The translations under genes were made by a program, and so were the position numbers. The notes under the pieces are model-generated. The model saw nothing but the letters and a program-made list of their open reading frames with translations, did no database searches and had not been told where the DNA came from. 43,326 nt of DNA, taken from Catajapyx aquilonaris (Eukaryota). How positions within the stretch are numbered: the first letter of the stretch is position 1; each line of letters opens with the position of its first letter. The stretch spans positions 1 through 43,326 of the forward strand of contig JYFJ02003333.1 of NCBI GenBank assembly GCA_000934665.2, given 5' to 3'. This document shows, in pieces, positions 15,701 to 38,700 of this stretch.

Positions 15701-16824
15701 CGACTCCAGAATTGTCCTTCCTGTGTGGCGGAGCAGGCAAAGAACACAATTGCGAAAACCTGGAGCAACGTCTGTGTCCAATTTCGTCGGTCTCCCAGGT
15801 AATCCCGCTCAATGTATAGGACGCAGCACTTACCAAAAGAGAAGCCTACGTCACAACTGCGCTTTTATAAGATCAGAGTTCTTTAACTCTCTCAGCGACC
15901 TGGTTACTCTGAAAGTCTCTCATCGACCTCCTTCCCTGGATTATACAGTATAGGTTTTCTTAGCATAGGCCTAAGGTGCGCCATGAGGGAAGTACGAGAT
16001 ACGACAAGGGCATGCTTTATTCCAGTTATCAATGTTGTACAACTGCAGCTTTACATGTACCTAACCTAACAATTCGTATCCTATTTAACAACTATATAGG
16101 TGTGGATCATTAAATTTTCTTGCGGGCGAATTTCGCAAATCAGCAGGGAAATTCCGTAATGTCATATACCGGACTGGACTTCCCATATCCTTGATCACAA
16201 ATAAATCATGCCATAACGACGCAATGTCAATGAAAATGTGAAAACACTGCTCTTCTTGTGATTCAGTTGTTATGGAATCAAATCCGCCATAAATATTTCG
16301 TCAGGGCACATGAGGGGTTTCTAAGCGATGAGTGCATCAGAAGGCAGCCAGGTATATAGCTACGCTACGCAGTCGTGTTAATATCTCATAAGGCTTTCTT
16401 TCTTCTGTAACGTAGAACCAAGGTCCATATGAGGTCATGGAATGGAACCCCGATAGGATGATTTGGACCATATACGGTAATAATATTAATAGCCGCTAGT
16501 GTAAAGATGTTGCGCCAAAGAACCACTAAAGCCATGTGGGTTTGAAGTACATGAGCGGAAGAAAGCAGTTCCCAAATTATTAATTTAATTACAGGATTTA
16601 TGTTGGGCTTGGTGTCGGTCAGTGTACGCATAAGTGAATAAGACGAAGAATCAGAAGCAAAATGCAGAAACTGTCTCTGACATCTCATTTATTATCTGAC
16701 AACTATACAGTACAGTATTACAAAAATTTCATCCCCAACAATATAATTAAACTAATTTTGATCCTTGGAAGCCCGTTATATGAAATCATATGGAATGCTG
16801 TAAGTCTGTAACTTTCTCTATATA

Positions 16825-17352
16825 CAGGGTGTTTACGACCTAACTTTACAAACTTCTAGGGGTAATAGAGGGGACCAAGACAAACATATTTCGCATAGGA
16901 ACCCGTGTCCGGAAACGCCATCTAGAGGGGGTTCATAGACAAGGAACGGGTGCGCTCCGACACGTCAGGAGGGGGGCATTAGCGGTCGAAGCGTTTAGTT
17001 GCTAGGTGGTGCGCGGATTGTACACAACTTCGCAATTCGCAATAACCTGGCAACAACAGAACCACCTAACAACTCAAGTCAGCATGCTAGGTAGCGCGCA
17101 GATAATAAAGAACAACTCTGTTGTTGCCAGGTTATGGCGAATTGCTGAGTTGTGTACAATCCGCGGGCCACCTAGCAACTAAACGGTCCGCTCGCTAACG
17201 CCGCCCGCCTGACGCGTCTGAGCGCACCCATTCCTTGTCTATGAACCCCCTCTAGATGGCGTTTCCGGACACGGGTTCCTAGGTGAAATATGTTTGTCTT
17301 GGTCCCCTCTATTACCCCTAGAAGTTTGTAAAGTTAGGTCGTAAACACCCTG
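16825..17352. mobile_element. 528-bp fold-back MITE, Tc1/mariner-type
   Basis: Termini CAGGGTGTTTACGACC...GGTCGTAAACACCCTG, flanked by TA on both sides (16823-16824, 17353-17354). Arms of 236 bp (16825-17060 and 17117-17352) have about 17 substitutions and no indels by manual alignment; the first ~68 bp are perfect. Spacer is 56 bp. No transposase. Confidence 0.93.
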
Positions 17353-17438
17353 TATAGGACTTGGTTGCTAGTATAGAGATATCCAGAGAGACAATCACAA
17401 ATACGTTCTCAGGGGGTGGTACCAATTTTAACCTTGCA

Positions 17439-18110
17439 CTAATCTTCAGGACTCGTAAATTCCATCCATATGCCTTCAAAAATATCTGTGAGGCCCTGCA
17501 TGAGCACCCTGTCATTAGAAATGACGCACACGTCCCAGTTGCCATATATCGCCTGGTTACTCCAGTTGAGAGATCCATGCATCCCAAATGTGTCGTCTAA
17601 AAGGACAAACTTATTATGCATCATTCCGAGTTTTAGTTTCTTCATAGCAACCGGAATCCCGGCATTTTGAAACCGCGGAATCTGTGATCTGGAAGTGTTG
17701 CTCATGTCAAACTCAGTGATGATCCTGATCTTGACACCCCTTTGGTGGCATCGCATCACTGCATCACTCAGCTCCACGTGGGTAATGAGGTACATGCATA
17801 TGTCCAATGTGCTGCTGCATCTGTCCAGATAGCCAATCATGGTTGCAACATGATCCTCTTGATGTATAAATGGTGTCATATCGAAAGTTTCATTCTCGTA
17901 ACCCCACTGGACATTCCCGATGCATGGGAAAAACATCACATGCTCCACTGAGGGTGCTTCTCCTTGTCTCATCTTCTCCCTTGCTCGTTCCTCCCTCTGC
18001 AATTGCCTCTGCCTTCTCTTCCACCAACGCATCCCCAACTTGTACACTAAGTACGCTACTGATATTGATGTGATCCTCATGACAGGCCCTGGCAACTTGA
18101 TCAAAGGCAT
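17439..18110 (-). CDS. zuc: Zucchini / MitoPLD (PLD6, mitochondrial cardiolipin hydrolase family), 223 aa, single coding exon
   Basis: Single HKD motif HNKFVLLD followed by GSLNWS...GNWD. Family segments VMFFP, LDICMYLIT, RGVKIRIIT and AGIPV are present. The N-terminal hydrophobic stretch followed by a basic patch (ITSISVAYLVYKLGMRWWKRR) resembles a mitochondrial outer-membrane anchor. In-frame TGA just upstream of the ATG. Probable 5' UTR intron acceptor (tttatttcag) at 18169-18178. Confidence 0.92.
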   Translation of the reverse strand: MPLIKLPGPVMRITSISVAYLVYKLGMRWWKRRQRQLQREERAREKMRQGEAPSVEHVMFFPCIGNVQWGYENETFDMTPFIHQEDHVATMIGYLDRCSSTLDICMYLITHVELSDAVMRCHQRGVKIRIITEFDMSNTSRSQIPRFQNAGIPVAMKKLKLGMMHNKFVLLDDTFGMHGSLNWSNQAIYGNWDVCVISNDRVLMQGLTDIFEGIWMEFTSPED

Positions 18111-19446
18111 CTTCAGTCACTCTTAAATGAAGAGTTCAGTCCTTTTTGGTAAGCTAAGCTCCAACAATCTGAAATAAATTAATGAAATTAGTTCTTCTAT
18201 CGACGCTAGCACCTTCGCAGTTGCTCTATCTGGCCGATAAACTGGTTGGTGACGTTCTCTACAGAAATGGACTATTCAATTGCCTCCTTCACAGGCCCAT
18301 AAAATGACGTATAGGGGGTAATGCCCCCCTTCCCAGTATCTCAATCTATTGGCGGAATATATGCATGGTGTGTATACTGTATATACCTAATTTCTTGTAC
18401 GTCAGTAATCGGCTTCGCCTATTACATTACTGCAAACATTACCGCTCGTAAAACCCAGCCATGTCTGAAAATACTCTCTGGCAGGTTCCCCAAATTAATA
18501 CAACGGATCTTCTAGAAAGGCAAACTGACGCAATGCAACGTAATCAGTGCCGGTAAATTCATCAAGACGGGGATTTCCTAGCTCCCGCGATAAGTAACAG
18601 ACACCCAAGATTCCCAAAGACCGGAGTAATAAAAGAAGCTAGAAAAAGAAAGCACCGCCGATCCTAATCTGGATCCCATACGATGCCGTCATAGGAAAAA
18701 CACCTGCGCACTTTTCCCCTTTGCCACAAAAGCCACTGGGCCAATTGCCTGTGGCAACTCCATTCCCAAGCGATGTGTTTTCCATAATGGAGTTTGGAGG
18801 GATGACGAGAAGAAACTCGAGCATGAAAGCATAGGCACCCAGCTCTAGTCACACTGCTCTAATGGCAGTATCAAAAGGCATGAAAACAACCCGAAAAGGA
18901 TAGGTATCTTTCTATTCAAATATTCATCTTCCGGTAGTGGTTAGCTTTTAATCCTGGAAATAACCCTCTTTTTTCCTTATGCCTATCAGTTCCGCTTGAA
19001 AAAAACTCCATAAATCCTGCAAGCAAATAGATTTCCTGATGCGCCAAGCCCACACCTTCCGCCTTTTAAATCAACCGGCCAGCTTTGGGTGCTCACGTAT
19101 CACCAATATTTGTCACCATACCGCAATCTCACCTCGTACGGATTTCGAAAAGACGCAAATTAATGCCGCCAGGCATCCGTTTTTGATGCTGCGAAGTGGG
19201 GGTCAGCACCTAATTGCATAACGATCCATGTCCGCAAATTCTGCAGGAAGCTCCGATGTGTCCGCTTCCTTGACTGGAAACAAGCAGCCGGAGATTCTCC
19301 AAGAGCTTATGCAAAACCCTTTCCTGCATGGGTCAGTTCCATTAGACTACATATCTACCCTAGATCCAAATAACTGCCCATCCCCCCCCCCCCCCTCTCT
19401 CCCCACTCTTTCCATGGGCAACCAATTGCGTGTGGGAGTCCGCTTC

Positions 19447-19525
19447 CACGTGATCGGTGCCGGAGTGTGGGACGCGAGCAACTCCAGTATATATAGGAGA
19501 GGCGCCAAGCTCAAGTCGCAGTGGT
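19447..19525 (+). promoter_or_regulatory. Probable core promoter of the orcokinin gene (E-box, TATA box, Inr-like)
   Basis: CACGTG at 19447-19452, TATATATA at 19488-19495 and GCAGT (Inr-like) at 19518-19522, about 30 bp after the TATA box. There is no intervening ATG before the signal-peptide start at 19674. Confidence 0.6.
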
Positions 19526-19673
19526 CCAGTGGAAGCAGCAAACTTTTGTGGGAAATAACAGGGCCCCTCCCCTCCCTCCCCTCATCCCACCAACCACCAA
19601 ACGCGATATCCTCGCATTAATTTTCAAACAAAAAAAAAAGAAGAAGGGTGACACCTTAGATCTGTCCAGGAAG

Positions 19674-22600
19674 ATGTACAGCATAGATCGCACTCTCACA
19701 TTGCTGGCTGCTATAGGCTTCTGGGCCACAATCGCTTGCGGCAAGACCCTCAGTCAGGTAAGTGTTGTAGAAATAGGAAAATATAATAGAAATATGTAGT
19801 TTTAACGAAATGATGTTTAAAAAAAATAATTGGCTAGCAAGATGAAAGTTTCCTCAGTTTGTTATGCGAATGGTCGTTTACAAATGACATAATGCATGCT
19901 TCCTATAAAATGTAGCATGTCCAGCACTTGTCAACAAGACCTGTTGCTCCTTGGAGTGTCTATTTTCGTCAATATTTGGTAGGATGGAGCGGGTGCATGC
20001 AAATTTGCTCAGTGGTTCACAGTTGATCAATGGGCTCGCTGGAAAAAATAATTATAGGGGGAAAAGAATTCGCAGTAATCGAGGGCTTAGATTCAGTACT
20101 TACAGGAAATTGCGGGCAGTAATCTCAACTGAATGGCTTCTTTTTTTTGCCTACTCTAGACGGGTGTAGACTCAGCATTTTAATTTCCCGCCCGTTGTTG
20201 CTGGGAAGTTCAATTTATGTTCTGGCCAAATCTGTCCGATTAGTTCAGACGACCAAGTGCTAATCCATTCAGGCGGCAAAACGAAGGGATGTAGAGGCTC
20301 AAAATCAGACTCGGATCAAGTAACAGAAGATACAGATCACATTGCAGGAAGAGCTATGTCATCCGCTTTTATCTATAAAGAGGGCTTACCACACCCTATA
20401 TGTAGAACATAGAAAAACTCTCGCTTTGCTAACGAATAACAGCATTCAATAACGCTTTTCCGATAATACATGGCAGGAATGCAGGTGTTGACTCGAATGT
20501 GGAAATCCACAGAATCATGAGCAGAACACAAATCAAGTTTATGGTGTCAGATGTAAATTACAGCACGAATGTGGGGGCCGTCCTGAACAGCATGCATGCT
20601 GTGGTGAATTTGCAAAGTGTGTGTATAGGATTCCGCTGACACATACAGGAGAGCTCAGATGATGAGGCCGGAAGGTCTTGCTGCTTGTATTCGTGAAGAA
20701 GTCCCTATACTTGCTCACAAATTATGATTCCGGATATCATTCTCATTAAGAGACGCAAATTATTGTCTCGAGAGATGCAGACCCCTAATAAGCGGGTCAG
20801 TTCATAACACACTGCGTAATAATCAGCTTCTATTTCTGTAGGAAGTCCCGATGTGCACGCTTAGCTGAGAGTATATAAAAGGCCTCGTATTCTTGTAGGT
20901 TATGCGCAAAACTAATAATGGGAAACACTATACCAGGTCACAGCCATACGATATTGAACGTGTAAACCTCCTGCTTTTCATTCCAAAATTCCGAGCTGCT
21001 TTGATTTCTTTAATAGATTTAGCCAATCCATCATAAACCGTTTATTCGGAGTTGTCGTCAATTTATTAAACATGCCATTAAAATATTGATTACTTGTGAT
21101 ACTGTCTTGGGAAGGCGGGAAAGCTAGAGCAAAAGAATGTTTCATGTGAGAATCAATACAAGCAATACTGAGTTACATATGCTGCAACATAATGCACTCC
21201 CGCTAATAAAAACGGTTCTACAGGCACATAAAACAGTGTAACACATTTACACAACCTTTTCTATCTAGTGATTTTCCTATGCACTACACAACACCGCTGT
21301 TTTATGCAGTTTAACTAGCAGAAATGCATGGCAATTTTCAAATATCCATACAGTCCGAGTCATGTTTATTAATAAACATTACAGTCGCATATCCCGAAGA
21401 GAGACTGACGCTAAAAAGCCCGTCCTTTCGGAGTAGCTAAATATAGGTAACTGGCGGCAACTGTCACGGGCCCGAATGCTGCAATGCTGTACAAGCTTTT
21501 AGACTTTTAAATATTTTAACAACTAGCTATAAAAAACTTACGATTAAATATCTATCCTACCATTTAATGCATTCACGAGCTAATACCAAGTGATCTGCAT
21601 CGCGCCAAAGTGCCTACAAATTACGGAATAATTGATACGTGAAAATGTATACAGTTTAGACATGCATTATTTAAATTCAGGGAACTTCAAAAGAACCGAA
21701 TGCCCCAAATGTTTCGAATCAACCCCGTCGACAGCAAGAGCATTAAAATGTCGCACTGGGGGCACTCTTTTTTCGATCCGGCATTTCAGCAATCACGAGT
21801 TACAAAGTGTCTCCAAACCAACAACCCGTCAATCCTTCTATTTAATTTTCACTGACGCCATCAAGAGACATGACCTCTACCATTCTACCCGCAACCAACC
21901 CATCGATCAAAAATGTTTCAACCAGCAAAAATGATGGCCCCTATACGGCATACTACATCGAAACTGATATTAACCCAAACTCTCCAACAAGACAAATATT
22001 CTATCCACGTCCACATTTTATCGGAAACTGTACTCGACCATTTCCACTTACGCGGGGAAAAAAAATTTCAAGCAGTTTGGACTCAAAAAGTAGCTCTCTT
22101 TAAATCCCTTCCCACGATGGTCATGATATGGTCGAATCTGGTGTTGAATACGTATCACTTCAATCCCGTTCATACGAAAGCGTTAGTATGCGACGCAGCT
22201 TCGCCCAAAAACTGTGCAAAAGCATTCGTTAGAATTACGCTGTAACGCATATTTATTTTGCCCACCCAAGCTCAGCAGGTCGTATAAATCGAAAATCGAA
22301 ATAAAGTACCGGTGGCATGTGGTCGGAAATGAGCCCTGGGATCGTGGCCTGGGTGTGAAGTTATCAGGATAAAAAATTGAAAAGTGCATTAGTATGCATT
22401 CGTTTTCTTTCCTTGAAAATTGGAAAGGGATGAGCATATGTGTGCCACACATTATTCACTGGGTTGCAGGCAGAAGTTGTCATTATTCACATCTCACCGG
22501 AGAGATTCGAAACAAATGAATCCAATTTTACTCAAGTCGACACGATAAACGCGTGATGTATGAGTGTACTGAAGGGATATCGCCTGAAACATGACCTCCC

Positions 22601-25600
22601 AGAAATATCATGACCTCCGAATTCTCGGCACTTTTTTTCTTCTTAATTGGCAGCCATGCCAGCAGGGGTTGACGTTTTTAAACAAGCGATCCAATTAACA
22701 CCTGAAACTTTTTACAATAAAATTTAATTTAACCGCAGAAAAAGGGGGGCAACATTCCCTCGTAACTTGCTCCTATTATAGAACCTTCGCCTTAATTATT
22801 CCTTCCCTACCAGTTAGTTTCTAATGAAAGCTTATCGATATCATGCAAAATTGCAGGGCCCGAATTAATGCGTCGGAATACAGGCAACAAGACGTCACTC
22901 TTGTAATCCTCCTGAAGCAACGTGCTTCATTCACAAAACATATTAGTTATGACACTGCGAAGGTTCCGTTACGACAAGAGTTATCTCAATTCAGACAAAA
23001 AAATTCGCAAACTGTCGTGATATTCCGATCTAATTATCAGATCATCTACTATTCTTCATTGGGGAATCACAGTTGGTTGGATCTCGGTTTTCCATTTCAT
23101 GTAAATGTCAGTCCGAGTAATGACCGCTGACCCATGGCGCAAATCCTCCGGACCGTTTCTGTCCAATCAAAGTCTTTCCAGCAGCACCGCAAAGCGCAGG
23201 AAAGTAATTACTTCTGGTTACGTCGGCCGTAACAGCGGACAGGCCAGTGCTTACCGCAAGTTGAGCAAAGCTCGGGGTCCAGATACCTCAATGAAATGCA
23301 TATAGCACGCCTTAATCCTTCGTTTTTAAAATATCGGTAGTGCAGACCTATAGCCTTAGCTTCCATGTTCAGACACTATAGTTTTCAACACGCTAACTCT
23401 ACTAACATTAATCATTATAATAGCCGCATCGATAACATGGTAATGCATAATAGCATTCCAAATATGCAAAATATCAGGGGAGATCGGTGCATACTGCAGG
23501 GCTGTAACAACACATGTCCACTTGGGAATTGCTTGATTGAAAATTGCGTAGTCGGTTAGCGCAAGAAGCACTTTACAAATTAGTGCTTTAGGTGCTTGCA
23601 TGAAAAGGCGCTGCGCTCCTTTTCATGACAGAGTTATTTGCGGTGCAGTACGGTCTGTGTTGCTGGACAGCTTCCTCGATAACAGTAAATTGACTGCATA
23701 GGCCACAGCGGCTTTACATGTGTAGGCCCTGCATATAGGCCGCTGTGCGGACAATCCAGATAACAGACAGGGCATTGTGCAGGATAAAAGGATGTGTCTA
23801 GTGGAATTAGTGTGTCTCATGTCGCATACAAACTATACGTAGCATTATTGTACCACTTTCATCAGGGCACATGGACTTTTAGAGGATTTTCTCCGGACAT
23901 GCATGGCAGTTACTGTTGTAATAACAGGAAGGGCACAGTTCTAAGATAATCCGTACAGTAATGAGGCAATTGTGTCCGGGTACAGAATTTCAGTCTGCAT
24001 AAATCTGAAAATGCAACATTACCCCAAATATTCTCAACTTACGATCTTCATCATCATTGCAATTTATGGTGCAATAAAAACTGCAACTGTCACCGTTCAA
24101 ATATGTGACAACCTGACACATAAGTCATACGGCAGCAAGTTGTCTTAATTTAGCCTCATGCTTGGCGACCACTCACTTTGCGACAGGTCCAAGTCATGTA
24201 CTGACCACACCCCGCACAAAACCGTCAAGTAAATTTCCCATGCCTATAAGGTTTGTTGATCCTCCCCCTGCAGGAGTGCAATAATGAGCAAAGCCAGTGT
24301 GGGCCGAAGTAACTCCAGGTTACGAACCGCACGCTAATGATCAAATGGCCCGTATAGTCAAGCCGCAAAGATCATAACCCCAAGCATCAGGCAGCCCCTT
24401 CGAATAACGACACCCTCTCGACGGTTAAAGTGAATTTGGACACAACGGCAAATGGTCGAATTTCGCTTCCCACGAAACCTCTTCTAGACCTGGACCATTT
24501 CGAGCCATGCATTACCATAAAACCGTGTGTCCTTTCCAACAGGAGTATACATATTCTGCGACAGGGCAGACAAAAAAATGTAAGCAACAGAGAGGGCCAT
24601 CATTTATTTAATGGACTTGACGGCTTATGGAAGTGGTCAAGGTCGACGTGAAAGTAGTTTGCCGACATTGCACAATTCCATTTCCCTCTGTTCGACATCG
24701 GGGACCAATTCGACACGAATTGTGCGCCAGGGAGGTAGCAGATTCGCAAATGGTTCCCAGCAGCAATCCCAGGGTTCAAATCTTCCTAGATTCAATCCAG
24801 AACACTTGTAAAGATCTGTCCCTTTTTTTTCTTCTTTCTTCTTTCTTGTCTGCTGCTGGTGTTTGCCTGGATCCAGAATGAAGAACGGAGCCTGGACAGT
24901 TTGGGCGGCGGAAATCTGCTGCGCAGCCTGGATTCGCTGGGCGGTGGAAACCTGTTGCGGGGACTGGATCCCTATACTGAAGGTCAGTTGGCGATGCCTG
25001 TTGCACTGCGACATGCTCGTATAGAAGCATATTCTATTTGATCCTTCTCAGGAGGACCTGAAGGATGGAATTATTCATACTTTTTGTGCGAGTTTTTAGT
25101 CTGGCACCCATGTCACGGAAACCTGAAGCTTTGAAGATTTAATATTGCGTCCGAGTTATTTTTAATAAGGCTCTTTTCAGAAAGAGTGTAGTTCTCGGAG
25201 GCAGCGTTCTACTTTTTGGAACGTGATTAAAATAATGTTTGAATGAGATGACGTCGCTGTTTCATGGTAGGAGACAAATTTTTCCTGAAATAACAGTGGC
25301 AGGGACGAGCAGATTACGCTCTTTTCCCCGGGGCATTAGCTTGGCTAATTGTCAAAATCTTCTCCTAATGGCCCTGCCAGTACTCCCTCAAATTGTACTG
25401 TATCGAAAAATATGGGAGACAATTTCGCATAGAATTCGTCTCCATATTTTTGAGCGATTTAGTACGCACAGCACACTGACGAGTATCAAGAAACTCCTTT
25501 TATAAGCAAACAATCAAAAGTATATGACATGCCCATTTTTATGAGCAAGGCAATCAAATAGTAATCGAGACCTCGTTCACAAAGCGTACAGCATATGCCA

Positions 25601-28600
25601 AGGAGCATGGTTGCAACTCGGGCATGAAACTGTTCCAATTTATTTAGGCCTGCACCAAATCTCCTGTCTTTCCCTGCCAATTGTGCGGATCTTTTTGCAT
25701 TACCGGTATTCATTATTATTCGAGTGATCTGCTAGATACATGAGCAGGATTTATCCCGAGTTTCATTGTCACGTTCGACTCATTAGTGCGTACTACCAGG
25801 TACTACATACGATAATAGGTACGGTTCCACCACAGTCGCCGAGGACATTTTAACGTAGACTATAATTTATTGGATTGGGGTCTATAGTAGTCAAAATGTG
25901 TTTACTGTAAGTAAATGCCAGTTCTTGCCTTACTGATTGCATCAGAAATGTAGCTATCGAGACGCAGAAAAACTGCAATAATGAGACACTTTTGATCTAT
26001 TCGTTTTTCGATGACAAGAATAACTAGTACTTTGATGAGGTCTTTATTTCACTCGTGCAAGTCCGGTAATGTAAATAGAAAGCAAATATTGAACCACCAT
26101 TAATATTTCAACAGCAGAGGTTCATTAATTTTCCTGTTTTCATTGCGTACTGAATTGATAAGTGGAAAATTCATGAAACTTTCAGACCCACAGGTGCCTA
26201 TACAACATCCAAAATGAAAAGGCATACGAAATTAAGTAGCAATCGACATGTACTCAAAATCCGCATGTAAATAAAGCAGAACTATAGCCTAGTTTAAAAG
26301 TCCGTTTCATTCGCAACTTTGATCGTCCGGGTTCCTTACGATCTCTTGACAGCAGAAAACTCCGAGACGAAAACTGCAAATGTGACATGCATGTTAGAGA
26401 AGCAATATTTTTATTCGTGTCATAAAAACGAGCAAACTCCTTGACTTTCTTAAAAATCTAGTTCTTTAGTACACCGAATCGCTTCTAGTAATTAGACATT
26501 ATAGTGTGACAATATGCAGTCGGTAATCTCCTAGGGTGCTAGGGACCCACAAAAATGATAATGGCAGCACATCTTCGAGTAGTTTCTCCAATGATTTCTC
26601 TCGCCTGGGAATACAATTAATATTAGAGTTGCTTTATGACATGCTTGAATATTGCCTTCCCGACAGCCTTACAGCCGCTCATTTTAGTGCGGAATTTGAC
26701 AAGAGAATTCATTAACAGGAATGCCAGTGCCAATTAGTTACAGTTTGCTTGGCAGGCTGAAGAGATGTCAACTCATGACTGTACCCAAGTTAAAAATCCT
26801 ACGCCCATCTCAACAATATTTGCAGGAAATAGTTCGCTACAGTATTCACGTCTTACAGTGGGCTACTAAAACCAGAACAAAATGACATCGAACAATGATA
26901 CTGTACTTGTCTCGCGGGAACAATAGCTCAGCCCTAAGATAAGCTGTCTTAATGTGGTACCTGATCATTAAGAAAAGTGAGAGATTAAAACGAGAACAGG
27001 CGGGACATATTCGCAACTACTCAGTTTAACTTCATTACCGGTACGTGAAATTATCGGAATCGGAACACAGTCAGCTCTGCATAATATCGAAACTACAAAG
27101 TTTTTCACTGATATTTATAACTCATGCAAGCAATTACCAGCTTCAATGGTGTCGCACACCACATCCGGTAATATCGGTAGTACAAAGTGCCGTGTAAATG
27201 TCCCTCCTAAAGTTCATTCTGCCAGAGAATCACATTGACGTCACATGCCTTGACTCATTATTAATTACTTGGCCTAAGTAGACAGTTATTGTTGCCCCAT
27301 GGTGACGATGACGTCGCGTCGGTCCCATTTAATATCTGGTTGAATGAACTCACAGCCATAGTTTGGGCAGTGCAGGTAACTTTCCCACGAGGTTAACAAC
27401 CGTGATAACGTACCTAAAATATCGGACGTAAACATGCCGCTATTAAAACATCGTTTTTGAAAAATGTATTTCTGAACGCTAAATCACATATTTCGTTCCC
27501 TTCTCAGCTGGTCAGATGCGCTTGAACTATCTCCGTTCCCTGGACTCTCTGGGCGGTGGCAACCTCCTGGGCGTACGTTCCTTGGACTCCATCGGAGGCG
27601 GCAACCTCCTCCGAAGCCTGGACTCCTTGGGAGGAGGTAACCTCCTGCGCAACCTCGATTCACTGGGTACCCTTCTCTTATTCATCAAGCTTGCGTGATT
27701 TACCTCACCGCTTAAAATTAATCCAATCTACTAGATCCTATCCAACTAAAACAAAAACAACAACAAATTTCCCCCCAAAAAACAACTGAACTTAAACCTT
27801 TACAAATATTTGACACCGGCATTTCGAGCCTCTCTCCTTCATTAGCACATGCACATAATTGATTTTCACGGAGAGCGACTTGCAGGGGCCAGGAAATTAA
27901 CTACAGGTTCCGGTGCTGTCGCTTATATTGTACCGGGGGTACGACACATAGTTGGTTTCCAAGTCGGCAAGACGAGGGGAATTTAATTGGCACCGATAGA
28001 AACCCATTAGGGGGGGTGTGTCGGAGTAAAAATGCGGAGGAGGCTGCTTATTGAAAAGCCGAGCGTCTTCTCCGAGAAACTCATCCAATCTCATGGTAGA
28101 TTACCCAAAACACCCGCCCTTTTGCATTTTTCAGGCGGTGGTAACCTCCTGCGACAAACACGGGGATTGGACTCGCTTTCCGGAATGACTTTCGGTAACA
28201 ACAAGAGGTTCGACTCGCTCAGGTGAGTTTAACATGGGTAATGGGAGACTCCAGGTTGCCGCACACATTCCCCGCAAAATTTTGTCCAGTGGCATCGCTT
28301 CAGTGATATTGCGACATGCAGTTCACGACAGTCTTTGACGTGGATCCACAAAAGGGCGGCTTTTCATGTGCGTGGATTCATCTGTGAAAGTGCCAGTGCA
28401 CTTGCGGAATGGAATTCGGTATAAAAAGTATTGCCCCTCAGGTATGGGCACTTACGTCATAGTGTATGCAGGACGGTCGGTTACTCCACATTTGCTTCAA
28501 GCCTATAGTTTTAGGACCAACATACTCCACATAAATTTTGAAATTCAGGCATAATTACGGCGCGCGGCGTACATAATGTTTTTATACAGTCAGCATAGGA

Positions 28601-29545
28601 ATTATGAAGAAGTAAATTAAGCCTAAATTCCATGAATTGCTGACTGCCCTTCACAGGATACAGTCCTAGCACTTGTGCTCTAAGCTGATTGGTTCAAGTT
28701 AAATTATAGGCGAATAAAATATTGCAGTGGATAATTCACTTTCCGCCTACCCAATCGATTCGTACTAGACCTCAGTACAGTGCAATGGAGGTAAATATTA
28801 AATCTGTATGTTCTGTCGCAGAAATTTCCAGCTGTGTGGTGTACTGGGGAGTAGCCTACGCCCTACAGTATTAGACTTCTGACATTCAAGAAAGGGATTA
28901 ATTCTTCATATGCCTGTCAAATAAACGTCGACTTATCATGCCATATTCTGGTATAAATGCTGTAGAAAATGCAATAATCTCTTACATTTTTCAATATGAT
29001 GTACACCACTTATTCACCCTCGTCACAGTACTGTGCGACCATTATGTATAGTGTAGTTCCAATTTCTGCGTAATGATATTAGCAAGTTATTCTGGCCGCC
29101 GATGGGGACAACCAATATGAGCCACATGTATCCTAATCCTCGTAGTCGGTGAACTGGACGAACAAGCATAAAAAGGCAGATCTCGTTTGCGCTAATGAAG
29201 TTTATAATATAATTAGAAACTAACGTTCCCTGCAATGATTGTAGGGCACGCGCAAAAGAAATTCTCTGTACAATACAACTGCAGGTTATTCATTCCATAT
29301 CTTGTTAACACTTTCGTTGCGTTTCTAGTGGGCTGACTTTCGGCAATCAGAAGAGGAACTTTGACGAGATCGACAGGTCGGGTTTCGGCAGCTTCGCCAA
29401 ACGCAACTTTGATGAGATCGACAGAACCGGCTTTGGCCGATTCGCCAAGAGGAACTTTGACGAGATCGACAGAGTGGGTTTCGACAGCTTCGTCAAGAGG
29501 GAGGCTCCCAAAGAGCCGGCCAAGGAGCCAGCCAAGAACCAATAA
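19674..29545 (+). CDS. Orcokinin: Orcokinin neuropeptide precursor (orcokinin-B-type and orcokinin-A peptides), about 217 aa, 5 coding exons
   Basis: Exons: 19674-19757 (signal peptide [23 protein letters not shown]), 24877-24982, 27508-27666, 28135-28222, 29329-29545. All introns are GT-AG, phases 0/1/1/2 are consistent, total 654 nt. Encodes six xLDS(L/I)GGGNLL repeats, [25 protein letters not shown], and KR-flanked [28 protein letters not shown] and [14 protein letters not shown] (NFDEIDR is the orcokinin signature). Confidence 0.93.
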
Positions 29546-29720
29546 AGCAGCTGTCCAATTCTTCCAAAAATATAAAAACAACTCCCCAAAAACAGAGATA
29601 TATATATTACAAATATGTCAAAAACCTATGTTTTTTGCTCCACGGCTTAATCGCCGTTACCTCTCTTCTCTAGGTAATCTCACTGTTGTTTTCTCTTTGT
29701 GTGGATTCTAGTCAACTTTC

Positions 29721-29726
29721 AATAAA
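29721..29726 (+). terminator. Probable polyadenylation signal of the orcokinin transcript
   Basis: AATAAA about 175 nt after the stop codon, followed by a T-rich tract (ttctttgtttcgtttc). Another AATAAA overlaps the stop codon at 29541-29546. Confidence 0.5.
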
Positions 29727-32700
29727 AAAAATTATAATTCAGTGTCGAGGTCAATGTTAACAAGCTCCATTCTTTGTTTCGTTTCACCTCCTTTTTACCA
29801 AGGCGGTTGTCTCTCTGGCCGTTTTCGGAGATGTGAAATTAGCTCCAGGCCTCACAGAAGATCACACGGTTCCGCATTATGCAAAGTGAAGAATGCTAAT
29901 TTCCTCAAAGTGTTACAACTTTTTGGGACGGGTTTCGCCTCTTTAAGGATAATCAGGTGCTGCTACTATATTAATCGCACTGAACTTTCTTGCTGCAACA
30001 TATTCGTAACCGAGTTACCTACATAAAACGGGAGCGCCTGGAGCCTGACATTGCGAGTGGTAACTGGAAAAGAAAACTCCACCAGTTCTCCTGATGCAAT
30101 AAAAAGGCGAAAGAAGATGAAAGAAGAAAAGAGGATTCCGATATTGCCACCTCTCAAAACTCTTCCGCTTCAGGCTATTCTACGAAAAGCCAGTTGGAAA
30201 TCCAGATCTGTGCAGAATACATCGTATATATACGTTACACATCAGCAACCCCATAGCAGTCTGACAGTAACCGATACCTCCCGTCCAGAAAACCGATCCA
30301 CGATATCACTAACTAACACTGAAACCTGTAACAAAATAATTCCGTGGACACAGCTTACAAGGTGTAAAAATCAGCAAACATTAATGCGCTTAACTTACTA
30401 ACAGGATTTCTATGGTGATTGGTACTTCACAAAGCACTCCAGAAGAGCTTGTACTGTAAGTATTCATTTTCGCCTCTCCCATTCACGAAAGTCCCCGTCC
30501 AGTGCCTACAGGAACGAGATAATTTACTTACTATAAAATCCCCTTGTATAACTACATTATGCATCGCTGATAGTAACGGGTAACATCCTGCTCGCTGAAT
30601 TAGACAGGCCACCCAGTTGAAAGTCATGGGTCATAGAACACTGTAGGTCAGACAGAAAAAAAAAAGTATCGGTACTGTTGACACTCACTAATCCTCACGC
30701 GCTCTGAGTCCACTCAAGCACGAAGAAAAATCGCTGCAAACACAGGTCTAGCCAAACGAATAGTGACATTGCGATTTCTCTTCCGAATTGCTCACGTTCT
30801 TTAATCTCGCTTGATCCCCACGGAGTGCTCGGTCACCGGGTAAAACGTTGTAGATACCCAGAAGCCTGTTACACCGCATGGAAAACATTGTGATCGGCTA
30901 AACTATATAGGTTCTACCCTATAATCAAGCATATAGATTCCGCCGGAAATTGATAATATCCGCAAGTTATTTGCTGCACCACTTGCGCTTGCACAAAAGC
31001 CCTTTGATGGTGCATCGACAGCTGGAATAGTGCTAGAGACATGAGCCTTTGACGATATATAATTCACATTTTAGTGTAACCTGCTGGCACACCTAAATGG
31101 GGTCAAAATGCACAGATCACCTTCAGTTAACCGGATCCAATTGCCAAGTTCACTCAGCCGGTTAAATTAATCTTTCACACAACACGTACAGCCTAGATCC
31201 TAGCTAAGCGCTGCGGTTTATATGTCCATTAGAACTGTCAACAAGGGACGTAAAATTTGTATTACATGCTGCGGGTCCTTGCATTATTTTCCAAACCTTA
31301 TATACCCTCTATGGAAATGCGATAGGGATTATCTTCATATACGGAGTTCTGTAGAAATAATCAAATCCCCTGAGGGAACCAGCAGGACACACGAGACTGT
31401 CAGTTTCCTCAAGCCTGGGTGCACGCTACTCTTGTACCAGACATGTAGGGCAACTTGTCATAATTGCCCAAAATGTTTCCGCGAGTGCTTCCTGCTTGGT
31501 CGGGGCTTGACTTGAAAGGAGAGTAGCTAGGACTCCATTACGCAAGCAAGCGGGGAAAATTACGCTTTTGCCGAAACTATTATCTTGCCTTCAGCATATA
31601 CCGGTGGTCACATTTCCTCTGAACAGGTCGCCAGATTCATAAGGATCCTTTGTGCAGCTTCAGAAACTGGAGATTAGAAGCAATGGACGTAGGTAGATTA
31701 TACACCCCTATATATATACTCCTGCCTTAGAGCACAAAGGGTAATATTTAGGGGCTAGAAAATTGCAGAGTATATCACTTTTCCGTTAATTAACCACCTT
31801 AGCCTAGCAGTGCAAGATTGCTGCTAGGAATTTGTCTGGTGTTTACAAGAGCTCCTCCGGAACAACATGCGATTTCTATTTCCTCGCAGAATTAATTATG
31901 CAGTGCAATTCCAAGACTGCGAGACGAGACATGAATATCCGGTTACTTATGAATATTCCGGCATTAACGTGTAATGACGAGATAATTGCGTTATTAAGGA
32001 GAAAATTAAATTTTAATTTTTCTCCCTCCTTCAATGAGGTTTGTTCTGCTCGTAACGGTGAAAGCATATGAGCGTCATCTTCTGATGCAGAATGCAAATG
32101 CGAAGAACTTTATGTCACGAGCACATGCCAAAATTCACATGGTACAGTAACTCTAACTATTAGAGTATACTGTACACAGAGTAGGGCCTACACCTGCTTT
32201 ACATATAGGCCATTAGCAAATAAACCCCTCAAATTCTATTATCTTCATTTCCCCTCTGTAACATGAACTGTGATACTATAGACACATATAGGCTTAGTGC
32301 AAATACAGCTTCGCGCTCGTTAAAAAGTTGAAACTTTTTGTTCGTGCCCCCGAAAAAAATAAAAGTATGATCTAGTTAGGAGCGGTAAAACAACACTGCA
32401 CACGTGAATCGTGGAACAAACCTCACGCATACAAAAACATGAACTGGAAACGTTGTTCCATCCTCATCGCAGAGCAGCTGTTTTTTAAAAATCAGGCAGT
32501 GTAATAATAATAATCTGTAGACCCGAGCTGCTCATAAAACTCCTAATAATGCCCTGATATGGATCATGAATCAACCCCAAATTTCTCCATCACTTCATCC
32601 CGCGTTAATATAACGTCCAGAACGGCGATAAAAAAAAACATAGGCCCGCATTCCGTCCCTATATCGGCGATTTCCGTGGCTCAAAACAAGTCATCGGACA

Positions 32701-35700
32701 TGCAAATGACGGCGGCGTGTGGAAAGCCTGTCACACATTCTCGCTTCGGATGAATGTGCAATCCCCCTGAGTGCTACTATACAAAGGGGACCTATGCTGG
32801 ACTGTACATCTTACTGCTGCTCATAACGCGATTCCGCACACTGCGGCAGGGTAATGGAAAACGTGTTAACTTTAACCTTCCATCGAAACCCACCCATGAT
32901 TCCAGGCGCCAAGGGCAATTTAATATACACCCAATCTTGTCCCTTAATGAACATTCGCTCTACTGAAATCCCTCAGGGGTAAAATAGTAGTTTATGCTAC
33001 CATCACATCTTCGCTCTGACGTAACTCCACACGTTTACTCCACTTATTCATCCATCCGTCACGCACAAATTCTATGCCCGTCAAAGAAGTCACCTGCTGC
33101 ATTGAAAACAATGCCCATAACCATAAGCAACATATCCCTGTCTCGGGCACATCACCTCAACAATTACTTTTTGTAAGTGACTTGATCGAACTCAGCGTAT
33201 AAATCAGGCATCAGCCCGAAGAATCCCGCTTACACGGAGCAGCATTGTAAATCACAAGTTCCTGATTGTGTTCAATAAAGGAAAAAAACTCACCTCAGAC
33301 AATGCAACTTTTTCTACAAATCCCACTGAACCAACTAACGCTATACTCGTAGGCCAACTGCTGTAATTGTGAGCGGTTTCATCTATAGGCAGTGATTATA
33401 GGCCTACAATACACTGTAGGGGACAGGGGGACTATTGTTTCCACACACAGCGCGCCCACTATAGGTGGGCAGAATTGGCCGACAATGATTTTGCGCCCAC
33501 AACAACAAAACTTCAACGAAACAAAGGCCTATTGACTGACTTCCTAATCGATAATCACATTACGACACAGGTCAGTTTCCATTCAGTACTCATGTTTCAT
33601 AAACAATTTTTTAACGAAAAATAGACACCCACAGCACGAGCTTGAATCAAGTCTTGTCTACACGGTTTTCGGTGGAGTGAAGCGGACTATGTTCTTTTTC
33701 TTCCAAGTCCTCAACGGAGGTAAGCTGCTCTGAAGCCCTTGTGACGGGAGAAGGAGGCGAAAAGTGCTCTAGCGTAGACTGACTCTGCCTAATTTGAGCA
33801 GGTACCCACCTCCACTTGAATAGCTTATTTGAAACATGGTTTCCCCAAGTTAACTCGGCTCTCTCTGCCCACCACCTCTCAATAAACTGACCAAACAAGC
33901 AGGCTAATAAACAACCTCAATTTAAAGGCAGAGAATTCCATATTACCTTGTACGTATATACGAACGCGTATATCACTAGGTATGTAGTTGGATACAGAGT
34001 GCCTGGTGAGACATCTGCATACAAGTGTCAAATATTAATTCAATTAACAGAGAGTGTGTTTTCGGATCTTCTGTTAAATAACGTTACTCTTGCACCTGTA
34101 CAAAATCACACTCTTGGAGGCCTATATCGATCTCAACTGAACAGTAACCAGCTGAGAGATCCGCCTTCAAGGTGTACACTGGTTTCCTGAAATCGTTGAT
34201 TTCTGGAGGATTCGACTGAAATCATACTCAGATGGTTTCTCTGGAAACCAAATCGGTTTCGGATGTTTTTTGATCCGTTTCGGATCGAATTAGGATCAGC
34301 CTCGGATCGTTTCTGCATAAAAGCATACTCGGGTTTCTCCAAGTGGCTACCTCCTCGTACCCAGAACTTAAGTACTTCGATTGCTGCATATTGTGCTACT
34401 AGACGTAAAAGAACACGCATGCTCGAGCGCCACTTCCAACCAAGTGGTGCTCAGTTTCCGATTACGTACTCTTCTATGCAACCTGTGATAACTGCGTCAA
34501 ACAATCTCTTCAGGCGAACTGGTGTAATTTCACACCAAATCAAACGTGCAGCTTCATGTCAGACTTTCAAAATTGTACTTCTCTTTGGTGAAAATAAGCA
34601 GAAACTGGTTGCTTTTGCCCCAACTGAAGGGATTCCGCCGACTCTTCCGGTGCCGTGAGCAATTCAATGCATTAGTTTAATTGCTTCAATTTCATACGTG
34701 ACGGTCGTTATTTCCTGTTCTCACACATGAAGCACCCAAAAAGCGATTTTCCTTCCGTTCCTCCAGTGCCGGAAAATTGGGGAGTCGTGACCTGCATTCC
34801 ACTGAATTGCAATCAGGACTTCTGCACTCAAAAATAATCCAAAGTGAAAGGACACGAGAGCAATAATTTTATATCACAATCAACCGCAAAGGGTCCCATT
34901 GTACCCCTTCCTTTCCCTACTTTCCTCAGCAACAAAGCACCATACTATACACTTCGGCGTCTGCGAATTGGAGTTCCCCACGCTATATTATAGGAGGCAC
35001 CAACACTTGATAAGTAAAACCCCTTGGAGAGGTCCGGCATCCCGTTACATGGGCACAGCATGACTACCCTGTTGACCCGAATTCTCCCTGGCAAAATAGC
35101 CACTCGGATTGCAGCTCAATTCCGCCTCTCTCTCATTAAACTGCGCAGACATAGGCTCAGAGAGTGAGAGAGAGAACTCGCTCCTTGTGTTTGCCTTCGG
35201 TAAACTCTATTCCAAACTGCACAAAAGGGGTATGGTTCCGACGTCCGCCGCCAGCATCCCGACACATTATCTGTTGGTCCTGTGTAATAAAAAAACAGGG
35301 CTCCTTTTGCCCACCATTTCCTCCCCTGGAGATATGGCCAACAATTAATTACCCTCGCGCCTCTCCCAACTATTCCAGTCATTCAAACAATGGAGGGAGG
35401 CGCAAAAATCAATGGATGAATAATTATGCATGGTGTGACGCGTGTCAATTACGTTATACTGTAACACCCGCGCGAATATACGTGTGAATTACAGGGGTGT
35501 CCCTCGTGGAAACTATTGCGGTTGTCTGCTCGGTGGATGTCCTAAATAAGATTGGACAGAGGCAGAGCAGGTTCATATTGGTAGGAGTGACTGCGGAGGT
35601 CATCCTGGACTCAAGGCATTTTGTGCCCCTCTCTTGTTCGCCGTGGAGTATACATGGCAGGGGCACTGGAGTAACAAGGTGTAAACTGTTTTACTGTTGG

Positions 35701-38700
35701 AATTAAATTACGCCATCTTCAGTTACTTTCTTTGCAGTACATTGTCACATTCTATCCCTCTTAGTTTTCATACGATATAATCCAATCAGTGAAACCGGCA
35801 TGTAACTGGTTCACTCCCTTCCGCCCGCAAAAACGTTCCGCTGGAATGCCACAAATATTTGGCCTATTACAGGCTGCACAAAAATCTATAAGGAATAGAA
35901 CACACCATAAAATCCCACAGACGAATATATCAGTTGTGTGGTTTGCGAACAGAGTAGGACGCAGTGCAGTTTGAATTTCATGTATAGTCCAGCACTAACA
36001 GTGACGCCAGTTGTGTAACATAAATTATGTACATACAGAAATTCAAAATGCTTATAGTCTGAGATATTGCTTTATTGGAATTGAAAATGTCATGAATACA
36101 GTGTGGTGGGTACAAAAGTGGGGGTTTCAGACGCAATATAAAAATCGTACTTAAAATGAAACAAACATTGCAGTTTCCTTGATGGCCGTACCGCACGTGC
36201 AAGAGTGAACTATCCCTTTCATGAAAATCGGATAGTGTGAAGTGCAGGTGTATGCTCGGTGCAAAATGGGCTAGTGTAATGCAATCATACTCAAAATACT
36301 ATTATAACAGACAGCACGTAACTAAATCAGTCGTTCCATTGTAATTTAGCAGCATAATAATGTTCCATCTGATTTATGGCAATTTCATCTAACAACACAT
36401 TCAAACAAACATATCTTTCTGCCATTGAGATTCATTGTGACAGTCAGGTCACAAAAACAATGGAAGGGCCATATAAGTTCATATCGACTATTTAACAGCA
36501 ACAATGCCATTCAGCAGTCACTAAACACAAGCAACATAATGAAGATTTCAGCCGTTTTTGAGCAGCATAAAATTCAAAGGCCGCTGAACTACGTGTCGAA
36601 CAGTTGGCCTGAAAATTTACCGCCCCATTCATCACCCCTTACCCAAACATTATCCGCAAATTATTCTTTCCTCGTACCAGCCCGCAACGCCTGCAATTAA
36701 ACCCTTTCCCGCAGTGAGAACCGCCACATAAAATTATTTTTGCAGTCCCAATAGTGGCTATGAACTGGCGATTCTCCATGCTTTTGCACTTGATGAACAT
36801 CGCCCAAAACGATCGTCGTCAAACCCGACCTAGCTTTAAAACGGGGTGAGCCAGAACGTGTGTAAAAAAGAATGAAGTGTGGGTGTAAACCCGGGAAAGA
36901 TAACAGCAGGAAATAATTAGGCCGGTAAAAGGTGTGTTTATCCTGCAAGATCAACCGCCTCATAAGCTTCCGCGGAGTTGGTTTAACAAACACCACTCTG
37001 TTTTCATTGGCTCTTGGGCATATAGTCTGAGGTCGGTGCGGTCTAAGCGCTAAAAACGTGAACGGACGATAAGAGAAGTCGAGTAGTGACAAGAGTGGTC
37101 GGCCTTTCCAGTCACTGATAATGTCACTGTACCTTACATAACGCTGATACCACAAAACATGCTGCTCAAAACTGTCCGCGATACACGAAGGCCATTATCT
37201 CCGACGCCCACCGTCGACGTGATTAACGATAACGATGGCGACACATATTGGCATGTACGTTGTCAATTATTATAAACTCTCTTAAAATTAGCCAGGTCAG
37301 GGTGTAGCAAAAATAATATATTTTTTTTCTTGCCGAATCCTGACCTATTTTGGCTCCAAGGCCAAGAAAAACCACTTGATCTCAATCCGCCAGCACATAA
37401 TAATGTTATCTCCACTCCCTAATAACCATTTTACCAGTTACGACAAGTTTCATCCAATTCCGTCGAGATTAATGCTAGGAAAAATTGACAAGTCGCCTTC
37501 CAAAGAATCAATCATTCCTCCCACAAATCGCTTTGCCCTGATCATCAATCATGCTCGACTCCGCACAGCCTTTTACCGGAGTGAAGTCATACCGCAAAAG
37601 ATACATCATTTACATAGCAAACGCCCGTACACAAATCAATCAGCATTTTTTCCTCCCAATTTTTTCCCCTCATTTGAATTGACAAAAAGGGGGCGGCCCG
37701 CAGACGTAAACCAAATTACAGTCAGCAAAATTCTTTTCAAACCTAAAGGGAATCAATCTCCCCCGCAGGACAGGAGCGCCCCCGTAATCGGATTATTTCC
37801 CACACCGAAATCAAACCCAAATTGAGTCACCTGAGCGTCTGCATGAATTACCAGCCCAACAGGGTGAAAAGGAAGGGTGTGCGCCCCCTAAGGATCTTCA
37901 TTCCCACCACCCCCGCCCTCAGGATGATGTAAAGGCCAGTAGACGCTGGCCAAATCGGGGTAAATGGCGGGATTTCAATCGGACGATTTGGACAAATGCT
38001 CGGCGTAAATTAGATGGACGCTGACTTTCCTAACTCTATCAAACACATGTGTGTGCGATAGTTCCCCATACTCGCACCTATCAAAAATTAACGATTCTGC
38101 TTATGATGCTGGTGGTACTGATTAAGTTTCGTCCCTAATGTTTTTCTACCCAGTACTATGGAACTATCTCTATTATGTGGGCAGTAATGAACAGGCAGGG
38201 CTGATGATGAAGGGTTGACAATGATCGGCTCAGATTGCAGGTGTATCTTTTCAAGCACTGCTTGCGTTAAATAAATAAATAAATTCTGGTTGCAATTAAG
38301 CGTGATTGGCGGTTGCGTTAAAATCCGAGCATTTTTATCCACTGTGTGAAGTGCTGCGTATGTTCATCACTAAAGCAGGTGCAAAACCGTGATTGAACAG
38401 GGGCATTTTACATTCTCTTTGCCCTTGACAATGTTAAGGGCTATGAATTACTACAGTGCAATGTGGGGAGCTAAATAGTGTTTATCTTTCCCGTGTATAG
38501 TTTTTTTTTCCAATTCTGTTACACGTGTAATGATGCTGTAAAACGTGGTGCCAATATTTGTGGAGTATTTTACCTGCGTAATACGTTTGGAATTCCTGGT
38601 GTTTACGAGGGGATGTGCTTCATAATTATGTACTAGTTTTAATAATTCAACGTTCGTAATTGCTTATAGGCCCACAGGATTAATCAGAACAGATGCCATC

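Follow-up and report, generated by a model that had tools for sequence, protein, structure and literature searches.

The stretch of DNA analysed here (contig JYFJ02003333.1, 43,326 bases, forward strand; hereafter the window) very probably contains an ordinary five-exon arthropod orcokinin gene of pancrustacean origin. Its main, and possibly only, mRNA would hold all five exons and encode a secreted prepropeptide of 217 residues, in a layout that is probably ancestral. The precursor carries six orcokinin-B-type (B-type) peptides of the form xLDS(L/I)GGGNLL, two orcomyotropin-like peptides (DSLSGxTFG) and three orcokinin-A (A) peptides (NFDEIDR). An earlier note on this DNA had proposed that five exons splice into one open reading frame (ORF) with these same counts and had read the gene as an unsplit architecture, either ancestral or re-fused. 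The counts match, and both the exon phases and a spliced contig from public data agree with the proposed splicing; the part of the proposal that concerns the novelty of the architecture fared less well, as we describe below.

Exon structure and transcript evidence

The gene consists of five GT-AG exons on the + strand, between 19.6 and 29.7 kb of the window. All donors are GT, all acceptors are AG behind pyrimidine tracts, and all phases fit. Exon 1 (19631-19757) includes a 5' untranslated region (UTR) from at least 19631 and a coding sequence (CDS) of 28 codons from the ATG (19674-19757), followed by the donor gtaagt at 19758. Its product has a charged start, a hydrophobic core and small residues before a Lys, and thus resembles a signal peptide when judged by eye. 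Upstream of it, a TATA-like element at 19488-19495 (+) is a possible core promoter, as far as the sequence alone can indicate. Exon 2 (24877-24982, 106 nucleotides, phase 0 to 1) encodes two B-type peptides between single Arg residues and then the start of a spacer peptide. The remainder of the spacer lies in exon 3 (27508-27666, 159 nucleotides, phase 1 to 1), together with three full B-type peptides and the initial half of the sixth. Exon 4 (28135-28222, 88 nucleotides, phase 1 to 2) provides the GGGNLL half of this sixth peptide, then RQTR, the first orcomyotropin-like peptide and the start of the second. Exon 5 (29329-29731) has a coding part of 217 nucleotides (29329-29545, phase 2 to stop), which completes the second orcomyotropin-like peptide and goes on to the three A peptides and a C-terminal tail; it closes with the stop codon TAA (29543-29545) and a 3' UTR that contains AATAAA at 29721-29726. 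The joined CDS has 654 nucleotides, i.e., 217 residues and the stop. The earlier note had placed the gene at 24877-29545, an interval that does hold the coding parts of exons 2 to 5 but leaves out exon 1, whose coding part is at 19674-19757. A pyrimidine-rich frame upstream of exon 2 was also considered as a signal peptide and rejected: it lacks an ATG, and its pyrimidines are those of the tract that precedes the acceptor.

The positions of the introns relative to the peptides and to the frame bear on the possible isoforms. Intron 3 cuts the sixth B-type peptide after NLDSL and the first base of a Gly codon, and intron 4 cuts the second orcomyotropin-like peptide. Exon 3 is the sole phase-symmetric exon (1-1) and hence the sole one that can be skipped in frame. 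If translation continued past exon 3 into the intron, it would end after 11 further codons, at the stop 27696-27698, and give a B-only product (frame 27483-27698).

All five exons are joined, over the intervals given above, in a contig of 883 nucleotides from one public run (depth 65.6). The contig has 0 letters that differ from the window, shows GT..AG at its four joints and ends 5 nucleotides past the AATAAA. Exons 2 and 3, which carry the B array, and exon 5, which carries the A peptides, therefore stand in one transcript contig; the earlier note had left room for the contrary, i.e., that these exons never occur together. The depth per bin over the gene corresponds to this contig plus two low-depth pieces within intron 4. 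In the bin that includes most of intron 3 (27288-27951), the depth is accounted for by exon 3 alone. No joint of the orcokinin gene is listed within 16000-35900 besides the four constitutive ones (one run, as contigs). The run in question, available as contigs and with no kind on record, matches 0.20 of the sampled words from 24800-29800, and among the runs that match this interval we found none recorded as RNA.

Peptides of the precursor

The product has the features of an orcokinin precursor: repeats of the form NFDEIDRxGFxxF(x) flanked by dibasic sites, homology to known precursors and orcomyotropin-like peptides placed before the A peptides. The three A peptides continue NFDEIDR with SGFGSFA, TGFGRFA or VGFDSFV; their copies (29357-29398, 29405-29446 and 29453-29494, +) are each flanked by KR pairs, and the sequence has a tandem period of 48 nucleotides across 29351-29500. 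The two orcomyotropin-like peptides, a class that we name after PMC4237046, have counterparts at matching alignment positions in the precursors of insects.

The B-type class is defined by repeats of the core xLDxIGGGxL(L/V/I), mostly between single Arg residues, and the precursor has six of them. These copies amount to three different sequences (present in four, one and one copies); one copy carries a GV extension, and all are bounded by single Arg, which is typical of most precursors of orcokinin B (OK-B) (Veenstra 2019, PMC6585902). Compared among themselves, they differ at 6-13 of 33 nucleotides and yet at 0-2 of 11 residues. This contrast argues against a recent duplication or an assembly repeat; we read the six copies as old and as kept by selection at the level of the peptide.

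The processing of this precursor can be predicted from its sites. The signal peptide would be removed from the secreted prepropeptide, after which prohormone convertases would cut at single Arg residues to give the six B-type xLDS(L/I)GGGNLL peptides and at Lys-Arg pairs to give the two orcomyotropin-like xDSLSGxTFGxx and the three A-type NFDEIDRxGFxxFx peptides. All three classes would then be made together, and presumably released together, in every cell that expresses the gene.

Search of the window for other orcokinin exons

If the gene were split in the manner of insect orcokinin genes, one might find a B-specific exon used instead of the A exons. None was found in the window, which includes 24.8 kb before exon 2 and another 13.8 kb after the stop codon. 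A six-frame scan of the 43,326 bases for GGG[NHSQ][LIM] and [DE][DE]ID[RK] gave matches at 24892-24954, 27540-27644, 28134-28196 and 29327-29482 (all +), and the only other match, beyond the orcokinin exons, is an isolated GGGHI at 10922 (-). Searches of the window with the exons and the precursor, by blastn and tblastn, gave no match at E<0.1 outside the five exons. The motif scan and both searches thus agree with the statement in the earlier note that the window holds no separate exon of GGGNL repeats, and nothing in it resembles a decayed terminal B exon either.

The layout in other arthropods

Homologues of the peptides are numerous. Pfam returns 0 families for the exon-3 and exon-5 peptides. 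With phmmer against 1.84 billion representatives, the exon-3 peptide has 173 matches at E<=1e-3; the B motif is present in 121 of the best 150 of these, both A and B motifs in 17 of the 150, and at least three B together with at least two A motifs in 7. The exon-5 peptide has 373 protein matches at E<=1e-3, many of them named orcokinin, and 17 among the 120 listed homologues contain both motifs. When the spliced product is compared by blastp with the precursors of Schistocerca, Halyomorpha and Amphibalanus, E values range from 1e-57 to 1e-64. The identity is 75.7% over 111 residues with 'orcokinin peptides type A-like' of Schistocerca piceifrons, 53% over 196 residues with isoform X2 of Halyomorpha halys and 50% over 230 residues, nearly end to end, with 'Orcokinin peptides type A' of the barnacle Amphibalanus amphitrite. 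An alignment with 21 homologues is collinear: the last B-type copies, RQT(R/K), two orcomyotropin-like peptides, three A peptides and a short tail.

We scored the three kinds of motif by regular expressions and wrote each precursor as a string of B-type (B), orcomyotropin-like (o) and A-type (A) peptides. The window gene reads BBBBBBooAAA. Amphibalanus gives BBBBBooAAA, Halyomorpha isoform X2 BBBBBBBoAAA, Schistocerca BBooAAA, and Blattella and Carausius BooAAA. A transcript from a marine catalogue gives BBBBoAAAA, the copepod Tigriopus BBBBoA and the millipede Chamberlinius oBBoAA.

The barnacle precursor (Amphibalanus, or Balanus, amphitrite; KAF0295567.1, cDNA JQ864201) is the best near-full-length blastp match of the window product. 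The two share a start that resembles a signal peptide, a run of B-type peptides at single Arg (five, against six in the window), two orcomyotropin-like peptides and three NFDEIDR peptides, two of which end in Ala, and in both the tail starts with KREAP. They differ in that all five B copies of the barnacle are GIDSLGGGHLL and that a long spacer separates its array from the orcomyotropin-like peptides. The barnacle cDNA was confirmed by rapid amplification of cDNA ends (RACE), and its five-fold GIDSLGGGHLL stretch is listed as 'Orco-PRP1' beside the NFDEIDR peptides; the authors called the B array one 'precursor-related peptide', not OK-B (Yan et al. 2012, PMC3462748). The fused layout has thus largely been described already, in this RACE-confirmed cDNA.

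The orcokinin-A (OK-A) precursors of insects (Schistocerca piceifrons, Blattella germanica, Carausius morosus and termites) are collinear with the window product from the last B copies to the tail, and at most 75.7% identical to it. They differ in having 1-2 B copies only; the window gene has four extra copies, in exons 2 and 3 of the same transcript. In the locust, the products of the A transcript include NLDGLGGGHLLRQT and SGLDSLSGATFGEQ (Veenstra 2014, PMC4237046). Insect genes also yield a separate B transcript, which in the locust and in termites is rich in B peptides (PMC4237046); aphids are reported to be without OK-B transcripts (PMC13302288). The stink bug Halyomorpha halys has an A-type product (isoform X2, XP_066903575.1) with seven B copies before the orcomyotropin-like and A peptides. 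It differs from the window gene in its documented splice variants OKA, OKB and OKC (PMC6250713), whereas none was seen for the window gene in the one run. The order is also found in gene models of wasps or bees. Outside insects, the predicted proteins of Tigriopus californicus (XP_059084447.1) and Chamberlinius hualienensis (GAB6027476.1) have B, orcomyotropin-like and A peptides in the same order; they have fewer copies and are known here as gene models. Precursors that include OK-B were also noted in a remipede, a copepod and a myriapod (Veenstra 2014, PMC4237046).

These comparisons suggest that a B array followed by two orcomyotropin-like and then three A peptides is the common layout of mandibulates, probably ancestral, rather than a novel fusion, and that the OK-A precursors of insects would have the same layout with fewer B copies. 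To speak of a gene 'fusing' a B array with A peptides, as the earlier note did, overstates the case, given that insect OK-A precursors themselves hold 1-2 B peptides and the stink-bug A isoform seven. The idea of an unsplit gene finds support in our analysis and its ancestral version is favoured, but not the idea that the architecture is unusual or newly informative, for the layout is widespread. Since it is in print for the barnacle and implicit in the insect OK-A precursors, the window gene is not a discovery. What is new here is limited to the copy number (six) and an exon map with transcript support, so that the significance is modest: a genomic exon map of an unsplit orcokinin gene from a pancrustacean that would lie outside winged insects. 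The gene leaves unchanged the present view that a single precursor already combined the B-type, the orcomyotropin-like and the A-type peptides before insects (Veenstra 2014, PMC4237046; barnacle cDNA, PMC3462748). The exact peptide strings of the window gene are absent from the main text of the literature searched, as available, and from the available part of the supplement of Derst et al. 2016.

Genomic neighbourhood and placement of the window

About 10 kb upstream of the orcokinin gene, the window holds a complete gene for DNA ligase 3 on the minus strand (9082-4680, ~16 coding pieces), of which ungapped tblastn recovered 854 residues. Orcokinin and ligase-3 proteins come from contigs of the same length, and so apparently from one contig, in Coptotermes (Cfor_02993 and Cfor_02995), Zootermopsis, Cryptotermes, Schistocerca and Anabrus. 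Because termites and orthopterans have this neighbour in common with the window, the neighbourhood appears to be conserved and the window gene appears to be the orthologue of the single orcokinin gene of insects. This suggests that the association of orcokinin with ligase 3 is conserved across Pancrustacea.

The ligase also gives an indication of the source of the DNA. One of its exons, of 77 residues, is 84-91% identical to insects and to malacostracans alike, and an atlas search with the ligase exon yielded just clusters that span the eukaryotes. We made a quick FastTree phylogeny from the 854 joined residues of the window and 79 of the 120 listed homologues (48 named and 31 of unstated taxon). 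The other 41 rows were omitted by hand and were mostly redundant Lepidoptera and Hymenoptera, and fragments. The sample had no outgroup from beyond Pancrustacea and no named branchiopod, copepod, barnacle, collembolan or entognathan. In this tree, the window falls outside the 54 insect rows, whose branch has a Shimodaira-Hasegawa-like (SH-like) support of 100, and beside malacostracans. By this tree, then, the source would not be a winged insect, which is the most that can be said of it. A sturgeon assembly includes two ligase-3 proteins, marked 'UNVERIFIED_CONTAM', that belong to the small group of the window on the crustacean side of the tree; this contaminant is an arthropod and not a fish.

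Intron 3 and the separation of A and B products in insects

The place where isoforms part in insects can be compared with the position of intron 3. In Macrosteles, what distinguishes isoforms X1 and X2 is an insert that separates NLDGI from GGGNLL. The A-type isoform of Halyomorpha and the B precursor of Nezara viridula have their first ~183 residues in common, a stretch that includes seven copies of the B-type peptide, and diverge right behind NLDTIGGGHL. Exon 4 of the window gene opens with the second half of a B-type peptide, near this point of divergence. The breakpoints of the isoforms would fit an insect intron at the same place, with either the A or the B exon completing the half-peptide, where the position of the insect B exon is taken from the comparison of protein isoforms. 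As an observation on the stink bugs themselves, it is the first ~183 residues, common to the A and B forms, that give the pentatomid A-type isoform its seven B-type peptides, and the available parts of the stink-bug papers, including PMC6250713, do not mention it.

A bolder proposal can be built on this, which we put forward tentatively and consider less probable than its negation, though with an appreciable chance of being right. In the lineage of the window, all three peptide classes, with the whole B array, may be expressed obligatorily from one transcript, in keeping with a mandibulate ancestral state, and intron 3 may be a conserved hinge at which alternative B exons were later added in insects. 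If so, the A and B exons would both start with GGGxLL and finish one and the same half-peptide, and the window gene could be used as a genomic outgroup to date the origin of A/B splicing and to explain it. Independently of this, a B-type peptide split by an intron near the hemipteran A/B divergence, together with exon 3 as the sole in-frame cassette, could help to reconstruct how A and B came to be divided between the nervous system and the gut of insects.

Alternative explanations

Several observations weigh against the view of a single, probably ancestral, five-exon mRNA. The transcript is borne by a single run of unrecorded kind, and contigs drop rare variants, so that other isoforms may exist. 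The search for orcokinin exons covered the window, beyond which a B-specific exon or a second orcokinin gene may lie. Some of the insect cases that look fused (Plutella, Loxostege, Polistes, Habropoda) are automatic gene models and may merge alternative exons. Finally, within the ligase-3 tree the window groups solely with sequences of unstated taxon (SH-like 84). A first alternative is that, beside the five-exon form, a B-only or B-reduced isoform arises by skipping of exon 3, retention of intron 3 or use of a B exon beyond the window; the species would then have a functional split between A and B. The gene structure permits this, as exon 3 is of phase 1-1 with 159 nucleotides and read-through of intron 3 ends at 27696-27698, and rare variants of this kind would drop out of contigs. 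Precedents exist: Derst et al. 2016 (PMC4770511) describe orcokinin splice variants for Collembola, Zygentoma and most Archaeognatha, and such variants occur generally among insects (PMC4237046). Against it stand the four constitutive joints, the only ones of this gene listed in 16000-35900, a depth in the intron 3 bin that corresponds to exon 3 alone and the lack of further B-like coding sequence in the window; Derst et al. also report no such variants for Protura or Diplura, so that a lack of variants has its precedents too. We regard a hidden isoform as rather unlikely, though it is the most serious of the alternatives.

The remaining two explanations have less in their favour. A secondary re-fusion, in which insect-style A/B splicing was once present and the B exons later became constitutive, would account for the similarity of the C-terminal two thirds of the product to the OK-A precursors of polyneopterans, which are the closest (75.7% to Schistocerca), and for an intron 3 near both the Macrosteles X1/X2 insert and the divergence between Halyomorpha X2 and Nezara B. 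However, the ligase-3 tree sets the window outside the 54 insect rows (SH-like 100), the window holds no decayed terminal B exon, and re-fusion is not needed when outgroups such as the barnacle, the copepod and the millipede share the unsplit layout, which makes it improbable. Were one to decide on a direction, the ancestral one would be the better fit, because these three share the layout and the tree places the window outside winged insects. It could also be argued that the joined contig reflects a processed retrocopy, or a chimera made in assembly, and that the five pieces do not form one mRNA, since the kind of the run is not on record and a joined form in DNA runs would mean an intronless DNA copy. 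Yet the four GT..AG joints keep the frame, the contig ends 5 nucleotides after the AATAAA, its depth of 65.6 compares with 2.2-3.4 in the intronic pieces, and the run looks like a transcriptome (85,611 short records, 32 Mb in total); moreover, the product is collinear with named orcokinin precursors. Such an artefact is very improbable, and a genuine five-exon mRNA remains the explanation that we prefer.

Other features of the window

Between the ligase and the orcokinin gene there is a single-exon ORF of 223 residues at 17442-18110 (-), which matches Pfam PLDc_2 (E 2.7e-28) and resembles mitochondrial cardiolipin hydrolase/Zucchini. This PLD-like ORF has one database relative, at 35% identity, and a contig of the same public run covers 17353-17622. 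The adjacent interval 16664-17353 is covered by a pile of short contigs of this run, at a depth of ~60, and 67 of 94 records match two places. Loose ends and a non-canonical TA..TG joint are also found there, and the interval probably represents a repeat, or an element derived from a transposon, within or beside the 3' end of the PLD-like gene. Near the start of the window, at 1042-1899 (-), two open frames have the character of leucine-rich repeats, with a weak match to LRR_6 (E 4e-4, below the Pfam cutoff); they are probably exons of an LRR gene.

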